From Escherichia coli (GTDB lineage: Bacteria; Pseudomonadota; Gammaproteobacteria; Enterobacterales; Enterobacteriaceae), in NCBI RefSeq assembly GCF_003334405.1, contig NZ_QOWM01000011.1: 64,000 nt of DNA; one strand, written 5' to 3'. The notes beneath the pieces were generated by a model. The model made no database searches. It saw only the letters and a list, made by a program, of their open reading frames with translations, and had not been told where the DNA came from. Of this stretch, positions 3,417 to 37,307 are shown piece after piece; position 1 is the stretch's first letter, and every line of letters begins with the position of its first letter. The position numbers and the translations under genes were made by a program.

Positions 3417-3463
3417 ATTTCTGCAATCAATGAAAAATTGCACAGTAAACATGGGGTTATGGT

Positions 3464-4666
3464 GTGACGGCGTTAAAAGTAGGAAGTGAGAGCTGGTGGC
3501 AGTCGAAACATGGCCCGGAATGGCAGCGTCTGAATGACGAAATGTTTGAGGTCACTTTCTGGTGGCGTGATCCCCAAGGTTCTGAAGAATACTCGACGAT
3601 AAAGCGCGTATGGGTCTACATCACTGGTGTGACCGATCACCATCAGAACAGCCAGCCCCAGTCGATGCAGCGAATTGCAGGCACTAACGTCTGGCAGTGG
3701 ACGACACAACTCAATGCCAACTGGCGCGGCAGCTACTGCTTTATTCCCACCGAACGCGATGACATTTTTTCTGTACCATCCCCCGATCGCCTCGAATTGC
3801 GCGAAGGCTGGCGAAAACTATTACCCCAGGCGATAGCCGATCCGCTGAACCTACAAAGCTGGAAAGGCGGGCGAGGGCACGCTGTTTCTGCACTCGAAAT
3901 GCCGCAAGCGCCTCTGCAACCGGGATGGGATTGTCCGCAAGCGCCAGAAATACCTGCCAAAGAAATTATCTGGAAAAGTGAACGGTTGAAAAAGTCACGG
4001 CGTGTATGGATTTTTACCACCGGCGATGCAACAGCAGAAGAACGCCCGCTGGCAGTTTTGCTCGATGGCGAATTTTGGGCGCAAAGTATGCCCGTCTGGC
4101 CAGTGCTGACTTCGCTGACCCATCGTCAGCAACTTCCTCCCGCCGTGTATGTGTTGATCGACGCTATCGACACCACGCACCGCGCCCACGAACTGCCGTG
4201 TAATGCGGATTTCTGGCTCGCAGTACAGCAAGAGTTATTACCCCTGGTGAAAGCTATTGCCCCTTTTAGCGATCGTGCCGATCGCACCGTGGTTGCCGGG
4301 CAGAGTTTTGGTGGGCTTTCCGCGCTGTATGCCGGACTGCACTGGCCTGAACGCTTTGGCTGTGTATTAAGCCAGTCAGGATCGTACTGGTGGCCGCATC
4401 GGGGCGGGCAGCAAGAGGGCGTGTTACTTGAAAAGCTAAAAGCTGGTGAAGTTAGCGCCGAAGGTCTGCGCATTGTGCTGGAAGCGGGTATTCGCGAGCC
4501 GATGATCATGCGGGCCAATCAGGCGCTGTATGCGCAATTACACCCCATAAAAGAATCCATTTTCTGGCGTCAGGTTGACGGCGGACATGATGCGCTTTGT
4601 TGGCGCGGTGGCTTGATGCAGGGGCTAATCGACCTCTGGCAACCACTTTTCCATGACAGGAGTTGA
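3464..4666 (+). CDS. fes: Enterobactin/ferric-enterobactin esterase (400 aa with GTG start)
   Basis: Protein (M)TALKVGSESWWQSKHGPEWQRL... with esterase GQSFGG motif; GTG start at 3464; the 3' end overlaps the ybdZ start. Confidence 0.88.
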   Translation: MTALKVGSESWWQSKHGPEWQRLNDEMFEVTFWWRDPQGSEEYSTIKRVWVYITGVTDHHQNSQPQSMQRIAGTNVWQWTTQLNANWRGSYCFIPTERDDIFSVPSPDRLELREGWRKLLPQAIADPLNLQSWKGGRGHAVSALEMPQAPLQPGWDCPQAPEIPAKEIIWKSERLKKSRRVWIFTTGDATAEERPLAVLLDGEFWAQSMPVWPVLTSLTHRQQLPPAVYVLIDAIDTTHRAHELPCNADFWLAVQQELLPLVKAIAPFSDRADRTVVAGQSFGGLSALYAGLHWPERFGCVLSQSGSYWWPHRGGQQEGVLLEKLKAGEVSAEGLRIVLEAGIREPMIMRANQALYAQLHPIKESIFWRQVDGGHDALCWRGGLMQGLIDLWQPLFHDRS

Positions 4667-32814: not shown

Positions 32815-34053
32815 ATGAAAGCATTGACTTATCACGGCCCACATCACGTTCAGGTAGAAAATGTTCCCGATCCGGGCGTTGAACAGGCAGATGATATTAT
32901 TCTGCGTATTACGGCAACGGCGATCTGTGGCTCTGACCTCCATCTTTATCGAGGCAAAATACCTCAGGTTAAACATGGCGATATTTTTGGTCATGAATTT
33001 ATGGGGGAAGTAGTTGAAACCGGAAAGGACGTAAAAAATTTGCAAAAAGGCGACCGAGTGGTAATTCCGTTCGTCATTGCTTGTGGCGACTGTTTTTTCT
33101 GTCGATTGCAACAATATGCCGCCTGCGAAAATACCAATGCGGGTAAAGGCGCTGCGCTCAATAAAAAACAGATACCAGCTCCAGCGGCATTGTTTGGTTA
33201 TAGTCACCTGTATGGCGGCGTTCCTGGTGGGCAGGCGGAATATGTCCGCGTCCCTAAAGGGAATGTGGGGCCGTTTAAAGTACCGCCTTTGCTTTCAGAT
33301 GATAAAGCGCTTTTCCTTTCTGATATTCTGCCAACGGCATGGCAGGCAGCAAAAAATGCGCAGATCCAACAAGGTTCAAGCGTTGCAGTCTATGGTGCTG
33401 GTCCTGTGGGATTGTTGACAATCGCCTGTGCACGGTTGCTCGGTGCGGAACAGATTTTTGTTGTTGATCATCATCCCTACCGCTTGCATTTCGCCGCCGA
33501 CCGCTACGGCGCGATCCCGATTAATTTTGATGAAGACAGCGATCCGGCACAGTCAATTATTGAACAAACGGCAGGTCACCGGGGCGTGGATGCAGTAATA
33601 GACGCCGTCGGTTTTGAAGCGAAAGGCAGCACCACGGAAACGGTGCTGACTAACCTGAAACTGGAGGGCAGCAGCGGTAAAGCGTTGCGTCAGTGTATTG
33701 CGGCGGTCAGGCGTGGCGGCATTGTTAGCGTACCGGGCGTCTACGCTGGATTTATTCACGGTTTCCTGTTTGGCGACGCCTTTGATAAAGGGTTGTCGTT
33801 TAAAATGGGACAGACCCACGTTCACGCATGGCTGGGAGAATTATTACCGTTAATTGAGAAAGGATTACTGAAACCAGAAGAAATTGTTACCCACTATATG
33901 CCGTTTGAAGAGGCCGCCCGGGGATATGAGATTTTCGAAAAACGTGAAGAGGAGTGCCGTAAGGTGATTCTGGTACCCGGTGCACAAAGCGCAGAGGCGG
34001 CGCAGAAGGCGGTTTCAGGTCTGGTGAATGCGATGCCGGGGGGAACAATATGA
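32815..34053 (+). CDS. ybdR: Zn-dependent alcohol dehydrogenase-family oxidoreductase (412 aa)
   Basis: MDR/ADH signature with structural-zinc cysteines (CGDCFFC) and GAGPVG NAD motif. Confidence 0.85.
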
Positions 34054-34283
34054 TCGTCAGGAGTGGTTTTCGAGGTAAAGGACAGCCATGACGATAATCG
34101 CCGCCATAATCAGAAATCCTATCAGGATGTAAAATGCTTCTGCCATGGTTATTCCCACAAACGAAACGGAATAATTTTGCAGCAAAAGTGAACAGTGAGA
34201 ACCAGGAAAAATTGCTGATTTTGCGTAAAGAGGATGCGAGTGCATCCTCTGGGCAAAGCGAGTTATCGCTTGTGCAGATGGGA

Positions 34284-34694
34284 TTAAAGCAGGTAGTCGC
34301 CAGCAGCTTCTGGCTGGTATTCGAGTTCCAGCACTTCAAGGTGGGTTGCAACGCCGCCCGGAAGTTCCCAGTGAATGGAATCGCCAACGCGCAGCCCCAG
34401 CAGTGCGGCACCTACCGGAGCCATAACGGAAAGCTGAGTATTGCTATCGGTCATTTTTGCCGGATACACCAGCGTGCGCACACGCACTTCGCCATCGCTA
34501 AGATTGCGGAATTTAACCCGGCTGTTCATTGTCACCACGTCGTGTGGCATCTCTTCTGGCGAACACATTTGGGCGCGATCCAACTCTGCGTTTAACGCGT
34601 CGGCGATTGGCAAACCAGCATAGGCGGGTTGCTCCAGCAGAATATCGATGCGTTCGGCATCCAGGTCGTTAATGATGATAGTTGGTCTGGACAT
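34284..34694 (-). CDS. rnk: Regulator of nucleoside diphosphate kinase, GreA/GreB-like (136 aa)
   Basis: [28 protein letters not shown]... matches Rnk. Confidence 0.88.
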
Positions 34695-34741
34695 TTTTAC
34701 TCCATGTCGTCGGTGCTGCGAGTGTCGCAGATAAACATACC

Positions 34742-34776
34742 CAAAAGAAAACCCTCACCGTCAGGCGGCGAGGGTT
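34742..34776 (-). terminator. Possible rho-independent terminator downstream of rna
   Basis: Hairpin AACCCTCACCG...CGGCGAGGGTT followed by a U-rich stretch on the minus-strand transcript. Confidence 0.4.
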
Positions 34777-34923
34777 TAACTCACATGATGATACTGACTG
34801 TTGCTCACTCTTTGAAGTGATTTGCGTCACATTCAGGGAATTCCTCAATGCAGCGCATTATGTATAAATCTTAATCGCCTTGGTTTATGGAAGACGAATT
34901 AGCGTGTTTTGTAAATCAGATGA

Positions 34924-35730
34924 TTAATAACCCGCTTTATCAATCACAAAGGTTTTGCCACAGTTACCTGGGTGAGGTTGTGGCAAGAATGAGTTTGCAG
35001 AAAGCGGAGCGTTGATGGCGTCAGCTTTGATCGAGATCTGAATTTCAGTCAAATACGCAGGGTTACCCTGGCACGTTAGCTTAACTGCTTTCACGTTCTC
35101 TTTTCCCCAGCTTTTGGCAAAGGCGGCGTCAAAGTCACGGCGGCTCACTGTTTTACCGTAATTATCCGCAAGGAATTTTCCGGCTTCGCTCTCTTTAATT
35201 TCTTGATTCAGGCGTACCATCGTACCGAAGTATGCGTCCGGATCAAAACCAAAGCAGGCACCGTGTTTGGCATATTCGTAGCGTTCCAGGCAGGAACGTC
35301 CGCCAGCTCCTGGCATGACTTCACTTAGTTTAGCGGCCGTTTCCAGTGATAATCCGGTTTCCGGCGATGAACACATTCGGCTGGCGCGCGCTTCTGGTAG
35401 ATTCGGGATTGGGCGAGTAGCGCAACCGAAGCGCATCCAGCGGCGTTCATCAACACCACGGGCAGCAACCGATTTAGGCAATCCTGGCCACAGACCATGT
35501 ACGGTCAGAAAATCAGCTTTGTTGGTCGTTTCGGTTTGCAGGCGACATTCATCTCGTTCGTTACGATTTCGATCGTGTTGACTCTGGCAAAATCCGGTTT
35601 GCCAGGAGAGGGCCAGGACATAGCGATCAAAATCGCCATACTGTTTTGCCTGCAACGCTAAGGCGTTGGCAGAAGAGAAGGGAAGCAGAGAAACCGCGAG
35701 CAACGCGGCGTTACGCCAGAATGCTTTCAT
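34924..35730 (-). CDS. rna: Periplasmic ribonuclease I, RNase T2 family (268 aa precursor)
   Basis: MKAFWRNAALLAVSLLPFSSANA signal peptide; the track ORF is extended 6 codons. Confidence 0.9.
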   Translation of the reverse strand: MKAFWRNAALLAVSLLPFSSANALALQAKQYGDFDRYVLALSWQTGFCQSQHDRNRNERDECRLQTETTNKADFLTVHGLWPGLPKSVAARGVDERRWMRFGCATRPIPNLPEARASRMCSSPETGLSLETAAKLSEVMPGAGGRSCLERYEYAKHGACFGFDPDAYFGTMVRLNQEIKESEAGKFLADNYGKTVSRRDFDAAFAKSWGKENVKAVKLTCQGNPAYLTEIQISIKADAINAPLSANSFLPQPHPGNCGKTFVIDKAGY

Positions 35731-35776
35731 AATGGGTGTGGAACTCATACATACACTGAATACTATCTATTAAATC

Positions 35777-35812
35777 ATAAAAAAGCCCGCCAGGTGGGCT
35801 TACCTGGCGGGC
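35777..35812 (-). terminator. Rho-independent terminator downstream of citT
   Basis: GCCCGCCAGGT...ACCTGGCGGGC perfect hairpin followed by a U-run on the minus-strand transcript. Confidence 0.6.
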
Positions 35813-35843
35813 GTGATGATTTATTCAGCGTTTGGCGAACGTA

Positions 35844-37307
35844 TTAGTTCCACATGGCGAGAATCGGCCAGCCAACCAACAGCAACATAGAGATGTAAAT
35901 CACCCCGAAGATTGCGCCAAGACGCCAGTAATCTTTTGATTTCACATAGCCACAGCCGTAAATAATCACCCCAGGACCGGTTGCATACGGCGTCAGACAG
36001 CCCATGATACCGATAGACAGCACCAGCAGGATACACAGTTGTTCCATTGGTACGCCCGGAATACCTTTACCGACGGCCAGAATAACCGGCAGCATGGTTG
36101 CGGTGTGCGCAGACAGGCTGGCAAACAGGTAGTGTGCAAAGTAGAACACCAGAACCAGTACAATCACCGTTGCGTTTGGTGAGAATCCTTCCAGGTGCGT
36201 ACTCATGGTACCGGCGAACCAGTCAATAAAACCAGAACGAGTCAGGCCGTTAGCCATCACAACCAGAGTTGCCAGGTTGACCAGTGTGTTCCATGCGCTG
36301 TTATAGCGGGTAATGTCTTTCCAAGGCACAACGTGCAGGGCCAGCATTAGCGAAACTGCCAGCAGACCAACCGCAGTAGCATTAATGACTTCACTGCCAA
36401 ATACCCACAAACCTAAGCTGAGCAATACAAGGCCAATCAGTGTCCACTCTCTGCGTGTCAGCGCACCCATGGTTTTCAGTTCATCACCCGCCCAGGTTGC
36501 CACTTCTTCACTGTGTGTGATTTCCGGTTTGTACAGCACGTAGGAAAGCCACGGCGCAATGATAAGCAAGATAACCCCAACCGGCAGGAAGCAGAGGAAC
36601 CACTGCAACCAGCTAATCTGGATACCGGCAATTTTGCTGACGAACTCCAGACCCAGCACGTTTGGTGCCGCACCGGTGACAAACATGGACGAACTCAGAC
36701 TGGTACTAATGACCATCATCCACATCAAATAGCCGCCAATACGACGCGCGGACGGATCGTTCGGGAATGATTTAAACAACGGCGGCAGGTTTTTAATGAC
36801 CGGAAAAACCGTACCCCCGGTACGCGCGGTGTTGGAAGGTGTAAACGGTGCCAGCAGAATGTCGATAATGACAATCGCATAACCCAACGTCAGCGTGCGT
36901 TTGCCCATGAATTTCACCAGGAAAAGGGCAATGCGACGACCTAACCCGGAAACTTCATACCCTAATGCAAAAATAAATGCGCCAAATACCAGCCATACCG
37001 TGGTGCTGGAAAAACCAGCCAGGCCCCATTTCAGCGCCTGTTTTTGCGCATTAAACGCTGGGTCAGCTAATTCTTTGGCATCAAAGAGCAGGTAATTACT
37101 GCCAATAACGCAAATAGTAACCGCAATAAAACTGATCGCTGTTGCCGGAATTGGCTCGAGGATCATGCCGACAATCATTGCCACAAACACAGCGAAGTAA
37201 TGCCATGCCTGCGGCGGCATACCGTCGGGGACAGGGATAAGAAACATGACACCCATCACCACCAGTGGGGCCAATAGTTTCCATATATTATCTTTTGCTA
37301 AAGACAT
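35844..37307 (-). CDS. citT: Citrate:succinate antiporter, DASS family (487 aa)
   Basis: Polytopic membrane protein MSLAKDNIWKLLAPLVVMGVMFLIP...; matches CitT. Confidence 0.9.
   Translation of the reverse strand: MSLAKDNIWKLLAPLVVMGVMFLIPVPDGMPPQAWHYFAVFVAMIVGMILEPIPATAISFIAVTICVIGSNYLLFDAKELADPAFNAQKQALKWGLAGFSSTTVWLVFGAFIFALGYEVSGLGRRIALFLVKFMGKRTLTLGYAIVIIDILLAPFTPSNTARTGGTVFPVIKNLPPLFKSFPNDPSARRIGGYLMWMMVISTSLSSSMFVTGAAPNVLGLEFVSKIAGIQISWLQWFLCFLPVGVILLIIAPWLSYVLYKPEITHSEEVATWAGDELKTMGALTRREWTLIGLVLLSLGLWVFGSEVINATAVGLLAVSLMLALHVVPWKDITRYNSAWNTLVNLATLVVMANGLTRSGFIDWFAGTMSTHLEGFSPNATVIVLVLVFYFAHYLFASLSAHTATMLPVILAVGKGIPGVPMEQLCILLVLSIGIMGCLTPYATGPGVIIYGCGYVKSKDYWRLGAIFGVIYISMLLLVGWPILAMWN

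Follow-up and report, generated by a model that had tools for sequence, protein, structure and literature searches.

A conserved 29-codon gene behind rnk in Escherichia coli encodes the predicted small membrane protein YldA, a probable relative of YoaI

A minus-strand open reading frame (ORF) between ybdR and rnk, in the 64-kb stretch of Escherichia coli DNA analyzed here (the window), corresponds to yldA (b4734), and we regard it as virtually certain that this is a real coding gene. Our overall explanation, to which we assign a probability of roughly 0.85, is that yldA is a known translated gene whose 29-residue product consists almost entirely of one predicted transmembrane helix. What is new here is a link to YoaI at the level of sequence profiles, which gives orphan YldA a testable hypothesis of Glu26-dependent action on a histidine kinase.

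The yldA coding sequence (CDS) occupies 34057..34146 on the minus strand and comprises 29 codons plus TGA, as placed by its translation, the MG1655 annotation and the family models. Its ATG at 34146-34144 opens the product MAEAFYILIGFLIMAAIIVMAVLYLENHS, which is followed by the TGA stop, and the flank directly before the ATG reads ...GTGGGAATAACC; this flank includes a Shine-Dalgarno-like GGGA (34153..34156, minus strand), recognized in the sequence 6 nt 5' of the start. Upstream on the same strand lies rnk (b0610; 34284-34694, minus strand), the probable operon partner of yldA, and from the other side ybdR (b0608; 32815-34053, plus strand) converges on yldA, with the two stop codons 3 nt apart. 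A preliminary description of this DNA had reported a hydrophobic 29-codon ORF opened by an ATG at 34144-34146 and preceded by GGGA, downstream of rnk and convergent with ybdR; translation, inspection of the flank and the gene coordinates all agree with it. Its label "unannotated", by comparison, was wrong, since the ORF is yldA (b4734) in MG1655, is named in RefSeq and is matched by two family models.

Positions 30727-36727 of the window are identical, base for base, to NC_000913.3 640000-646000 of E. coli K-12 MG1655, and the MG1655 record annotates the ORF as yldA, b4734, YP_009518757.1, at 643330-643419. Across 5,423 E. coli genomes, most sampled records carry the RefSeq product name "small membrane protein YldA". 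The NCBIfam model NF041476 matches YldA with 57.9 bits against a cutoff of 45, with residues 1-29 falling on profile positions 1-29 of 29, and the Pfam model PF23689 ("YldA-like") matches with 70.3 bits and an i-E of 8.9e-20; YldA covers each of the two models from end to end and passes its cutoff. The conserved family core, A-I-I-V-x-A-V-L-Y-L-E, corresponds to AAIIVMAVLYLE in the window protein.

The length of the ORF, taken by itself, lies within chance because the window holds hundreds of ORFs of this kind. Its hydrophobicity and, above all, its conservation raise it above chance. The best 19-residue Kyte-Doolittle window of YldA scores 2.97 (residues 7-25), the top value among the 390 ATG-to-stop ORFs of 25-50 aa in the 64-kb window, and the predicted hydrophobic helix spans about residues 4-25. 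The earlier view that the ORF encodes a single predicted helix of the small-membrane-protein type often missed by annotation is supported. The hydrophobicity screen flagged two further short ATG-to-stop stretches of the window, neither of which resembles a gene in its own right: one at 14143-14274 (plus strand) overlaps entS at its 3' end, on the strand of that gene, and apparently represents the EntS C-terminal helix, and one at 23513-23418 (minus strand) lies inside hcxA, also on the same strand.

The gene is already known, having been named, annotated and experimentally detected since 2018. VanOrsdel et al. 2018 listed the ORF with the same coordinates and sequence (PMC6001520, Table 1), and YldA was among the 36 of 80 candidate small ORFs for which a chromosomally SPA-tagged product was seen on immunoblots from LB cultures (PMC6001520). 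It is absent from the 13 proteins of that SPA-tag study that were also found by a tetracycline ribosome-profiling screen (PMC6001520). In a study of the response to NaF in anaerobiosis, yldA fell in a cluster of 100 NaF-induced genes that also holds phoPQ/rstAB and genes of the osmotic and envelope stress responses (PMC10100675), a membership that amounts to a correlative expression hint. The searchable papers report nothing on the function, localization, interactions or fractionation of YldA, and a literature search for "b4734" returned no result. YldA is unmentioned in the main text of the YoaI paper (PMC11429745), and hence is missing from the 17 small proteins induced by low Mg that are treated there; it is likewise unmentioned in a 2025 review of small membrane proteins (PMC12648545). 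An EHEC Ribo-seq paper speaks of the rnk leader only. A search of solved structures with the YldA profile gave no match.

In order to follow yldA across the Enterobacteriaceae, we scanned 80 species-level loci anchored on rnk by a six-frame HMM search restricted to the region downstream of rnk. A homolog was present in 34 of the 80 species, always with exactly 29 codons and an ATG start. The carriers include Escherichia, part of Citrobacter, many Enterobacter, Lelliottia, Leclercia, Pseudenterobacter, Phytobacter and some Kosakonia. The remaining 46 species, including Salmonella, the C. freundii group and Kluyvera, have no yldA behind rnk, and in these loci only 79-206 nt separate rnk from the gene that follows, so yldA is cleanly absent rather than decayed; absence downstream of rnk in this many species also means that yldA is dispensable. 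The sole decayed copy was found in Enterobacter cloacae DSM 26481 (locus L034, 3473-3511), where a remnant of CDS positions 51-89 survives and the 5' half is deleted. Several close Enterobacter relatives keep an intact yldA, and E. hormaechei and others are cleanly without it; this mixture of intact and missing copies within one genus implies repeated loss. The preliminary description had proposed SPA tagging, for which the positive result of VanOrsdel et al. 2018 was already published (PMC6001520), and had named frameshifts or stops in orthologous regions as refuting evidence; our scan disclosed only intact 29-codon copies, clean absences and the one truncated remnant.

Selection was evaluated on 37 unique yldA CDS, all of 90 nt with an ATG start. 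The pooled pN/pS came to 0.38 in the yldA frame. Among the five alternative frames, four gave 1.15-1.55, and the fifth, an antisense frame with shared wobble positions, gave 0.50. Column entropy at codon positions 1, 2 and 3 was 0.66, 0.48 and 1.19, respectively, with the third position the most variable. The yldA ORF is thus under purifying selection as a protein. Six residues are invariant in the 37 homologs (M1, E3, A21, V22, L25 and E26), and the usual C-terminus is AVLYLE-R-H-W. Most of the homologs carry a G-rich element (GGGGA, GGAA or GGGA) 5-8 nt 5' of the ATG, and a few loci have only a weaker AGG-type match upstream of it. The evolutionary evidence, namely constant length, frame-specific selection and near-universal presence in E. 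coli, shows that YldA is a functional protein and no product of incidental translation, a conclusion beyond the reach of the tagging study alone.

The convergent neighbor is less constant. ybdR stands beside yldA in only 15 of the 37 loci and is absent from the other 22. Where it is present, the stop-to-stop distance is 2-11 nt, so the ybdR and yldA transcripts must overlap, in agreement with the published classification of the pair as a convergent excludon (PMC12288877).

We rejected a 62-aa in-frame form beginning at an ATG at 34245, as the extension is unconserved and stops intervene in other species, often 8-12 codons upstream of the conserved Met; both NF041476 and PF23689 cover residues 34-62 only of this longer form. 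Some GenBank records of the same region (34057-34245, minus strand) nevertheless carry a "hypothetical protein" of 62 aa or longer, or a YldA of 81-98 aa, and these over-long versions are probably wrong start calls. A protein search with the 62-aa form returned only 10 entries, all near-identical: nine were E. coli or unnamed, one bore the label Vibrio cholerae, and several were "hypothetical protein" calls of excessive length. A 43-aa "YldA" with the V. cholerae label lies on a 564-nt contig and, where it aligns, matches E. coli at 100%; it is probably contamination.

Within E. coli, 5,423 of 5,426 complete genomes have yldA, each with either of two diverged alleles. The K-12 allele is linked to ybdR and occurs in 3,605 complete genomes; the second allele, MSEALGITAFYIFIAAIIVAAVLYLEQRW, occurs in 1,818 genomes, all of which lack ybdR and have uspG directly downstream. 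The two proteins are 52% identical (pS 0.80, pN 0.36), and both have 29 codons. DNA identity between the alleles collapses right 3' of a hairpin that follows rnk, with the breakpoint at its 3' edge, and the dimorphic region corresponds to 32815-34200 of the window versus 3700-4000 of the loci with the second arrangement (L002/L003). The second allele is also found in E. albertii and another Escherichia species, and the K-12 YldA is nearest to Citrobacter amalonaticus-type sequences (72-76%) and farther from the other E. coli allele. This pattern suggests an old replacement of the ybdR-yldA segment in E. coli.

The spacer between rnk and yldA (34147..34283, minus strand) measures 137 nt, and in 35 of the 37 loci its length is 128-146 nt. 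A scan of its coding strand for consensus sigma-70 promoters gave none in the window or in three other species; such a scan is blind to promoters that depend on an activator or on an alternative sigma factor. The rnk 3' hairpin, GAGGATGC-ACTC-GCATCCTC (34230..34249, minus strand), appeared in both the MFE and the centroid fold and is followed by only TTT, and a terminator scan did not call it as an intrinsic terminator. Read-through from rnk is favored because no promoter was found, the hairpin is followed by TTT only and the spacing is constant. On the strength of these missing consensus signals and the constant spacing we lean towards co-transcription of yldA with rnk by read-through. If this is the case, yldA would also come under control of the rnk leader, which Rfam identifies upstream of rnk (rnk_leader, RF01771; 124.9 bits, window 34740-34848, minus strand) and whose terminator-like hairpin (34777-34749) was also picked by the terminator scan. 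Over yldA and the spacer, the Rfam scan gave chance-level matches only, with no sRNA family.

The hairpin is invariant in 34 aligned yldA-positive species and is found in most yldA-negative species as well, where the top pair shows compensatory C:G to T:A changes. We therefore rejected it as a regulatory element of yldA, given that it persists behind rnk in species without yldA; the hairpin at 34230-34249 belongs to rnk. Taken as a feature of rnk, the element GAGGATGC-N3-5-GCATCCTC has a stem that is invariant in more than 60 enterobacterial species, with a variable loop and variable flanks and covariation at the top pair only, and it stands about 35-45 nt past the rnk stop (loci L004-L082). 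Invariance at the level of sequence is unusual for a plain terminator, and for this reason the palindrome could be a recognition site for a protein or an RNase. Citrobacter amalonaticus AUH_CA_2023_1 (locus L019, 3445-3811) has two copies of the hairpin, at 3445 and 3608, and 313 nt between rnk and yldA versus about 140, a sign that about 163 nt of this spacer have been duplicated in tandem. A second structure, a hairpin in the K-12 fold that would sequester the Shine-Dalgarno element, was discarded as unconserved in Enterobacter-type sequences when the alignment was inspected by eye.

YoaI (b1788; NCBIfam NF041475) is a PhoB-regulated small inner-membrane protein of 34 aa that binds and activates EnvZ (Vellappan et al. 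2025, PMC11429745). Its residues Ser26, Val27 and Glu31 are invariant, and the substitutions E31A and E31Q abolish both EnvZ binding and activation (PMC11429745). The NCBIfam YoaI model scores 22.5 bits (E 8.7e-5) on YldA, below the equivalog cutoff of 45, and judged by this score YldA is not a YoaI equivalog. In the opposite direction, the YldA HMM scores 18.9 bits on MG1655 YoaI, a value reached by 0 of 20,000 full shuffles and by 3 of 20,000 core-only shuffles; with the Pfam YldA model (PF23689), YoaI went undetected.

To compare the families at the profile level, YoaI representatives were gathered by exhaustive phmmer and aligned, and the resulting profile was compared with the YldA alignment by hhalign. 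The comparison gave 96.7% probability, an E of 3.3e-10 and a score of 39.4 over 27 ungapped columns (YldA 2-28, YoaI 7-33). A null built by shuffling the transmembrane-core columns had a mean of 13.2, an sd of 2.9 and a maximum of 25.6, with 0 of 400 shuffles reaching 39.4. Ser26, Val27 and Glu31 of YoaI align with Ala21, Val22 and Glu26 of YldA, all of them invariant in YldA; thus, the Val and the Glu are kept and the Ser is replaced by Ala. These profile comparisons make it probable that YldA and YoaI are homologous; likeness by convergence is possible, as the comparison covers about 27 residues of a transmembrane helix.

We propose a tentative mechanism. Most yldA transcription would come from rnk, with polymerase reading through the weak hairpin at the rnk 3' end. 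The protein would insert into the inner membrane, probably with its N-terminus out and with the tail at its C-terminus (E-R/N-H-W/S) facing the cytoplasm, the orientation predicted for YoaI. K-12 YldA ends in ENHS, without the Arg27 and Trp29 of most homologs, which leaves too little charge bias to fix its topology. In the manner of YoaI and other small membrane proteins, YldA probably works by binding a larger protein of the membrane. A sensor histidine kinase is the most plausible partner, and contact with the kinase would be made through the invariant juxtamembrane Glu26 that aligns with Glu31 of YoaI. Action as a kinase modulator is a possibility that we hold with low confidence. The fuller proposal, in which YldA and YoaI would be paralogs in one previously unlinked bitopic family of about 30 residues and YldA would tune a two-component sensor kinase, EnvZ or a different one, via Glu26, is speculative and rather unlikely to hold in all its parts.

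The best-surviving alternative is that YldA is a real small membrane protein with a partner other than a kinase, for example as a stabilizing or regulatory subunit of a transporter or respiratory complex, in the manner of AcrZ, KdpF, CydX or MgtS. The likeness to YoaI would then reflect common descent or helix packing without a shared target. This is about as likely as a kinase partner and comes close to an even chance. For most of the small membrane proteins characterized in E. coli, the partner is a transporter or an enzyme complex (reviewed in PMC12648545), YoaI itself has an EnvZ-independent overexpression phenotype (PMC11429745), and both the score of YldA under the YoaI equivalog cutoff and the Ala in place of YoaI Ser26 are in keeping with a different target. 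Against it, the best-conserved part of YldA (A21, V22, L25 and E26) falls on the stretch of YoaI that matters for EnvZ binding, and the neighbors rnk, ybdR and uspG all encode soluble proteins and no membrane complex.

A very improbable alternative makes YldA a type I toxin-like, membrane-depolarizing peptide held down by antisense from the ybdR 3' end. TisB, DinQ and ShoB are type I toxin peptides of a size similar to YldA. YldA is a short hydrophobic peptide, its transcript overlap with ybdR is obligatory with the stops 3 nt apart, the pair is listed as an excludon (PMC12288877), and overexpression of YoaI, a related protein, delays growth (PMC11429745). However, tagged YldA is detectable in ordinary LB cultures (PMC6001520), and yldA is a single-copy gene with fixed synteny in nearly all E. 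coli genomes. Moreover, ybdR is missing from 22 of the 37 yldA-positive loci and from 1,818 E. coli genomes (a third), so the antisense partner is unconserved, and the region has no Rfam sRNA match. That the ORF is non-functional, owing its conservation only to a place in the rnk 3' UTR or in the terminator region of ybdR and giving a tag signal by incidental translation, could draw on a spacer without its own promoter, on the absence of the gene from many related species and on the finding of VanOrsdel et al. (PMC6001520) that annotation and detection are in general uncorrelated, but it is essentially excluded by the protein pattern of a pN/pS of 0.38 with the third positions most variable, by the 29 codons, ATG and six residues that stay constant in 37 diverged sequences, by the persistence of yldA with or without ybdR, and by the location of the truly invariant RNA element, the rnk hairpin, outside the ORF.

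If YldA tunes a kinase and yldA is indeed transcribed behind rnk, expression controlled by the rnk leader would be coupled to envelope signaling. In that case the two E. coli alleles, ending in ENHS with ybdR and in EQRW without it, could differ in their partner or in the strength of their effect.

Within the YldA family (NF041476/PF23689), the window protein is the reference member, as its DNA is identical to that of MG1655 and it occupies the same place between ybdR and rnk; the K-12 allele is nevertheless atypical at its C-terminus, with ENHS in place of ER/Q-H/R-W. Relative to YoaI, both proteins have a single predicted helix, flanked by a conserved Glu near the N-terminus and by an LE[RK] tail at the other end. 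The arrangement of the genes is also alike: the yoaI stop lies 0 nt from that of convergent yeaK (MG1655, locus L084, 5575-6183) and those of ybdR and yldA are 3 nt apart, so that, with stops abutting convergent genes, neither yoaI nor yldA has room for its own terminator. In contrast to YoaI, YldA is without the five N-terminal residues MNDQM, has Ala where YoaI has the invariant Ser26, and is encoded at another locus, behind rnk. Other small membrane modulators of sensor kinases are known in the pairs MgrB-PhoQ, SafA-PhoQ and MzrA-EnvZ (PMC11429745, PMC12648545). The likeness here lies in the general design, a histidine kinase tuned by a short bitopic membrane protein, which for YldA is only proposed. 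MgrB, SafA and MzrA show no sequence relationship to YldA, are 47-127 aa long and act partly through periplasmic domains, whereas YldA is essentially without an extramembrane domain.
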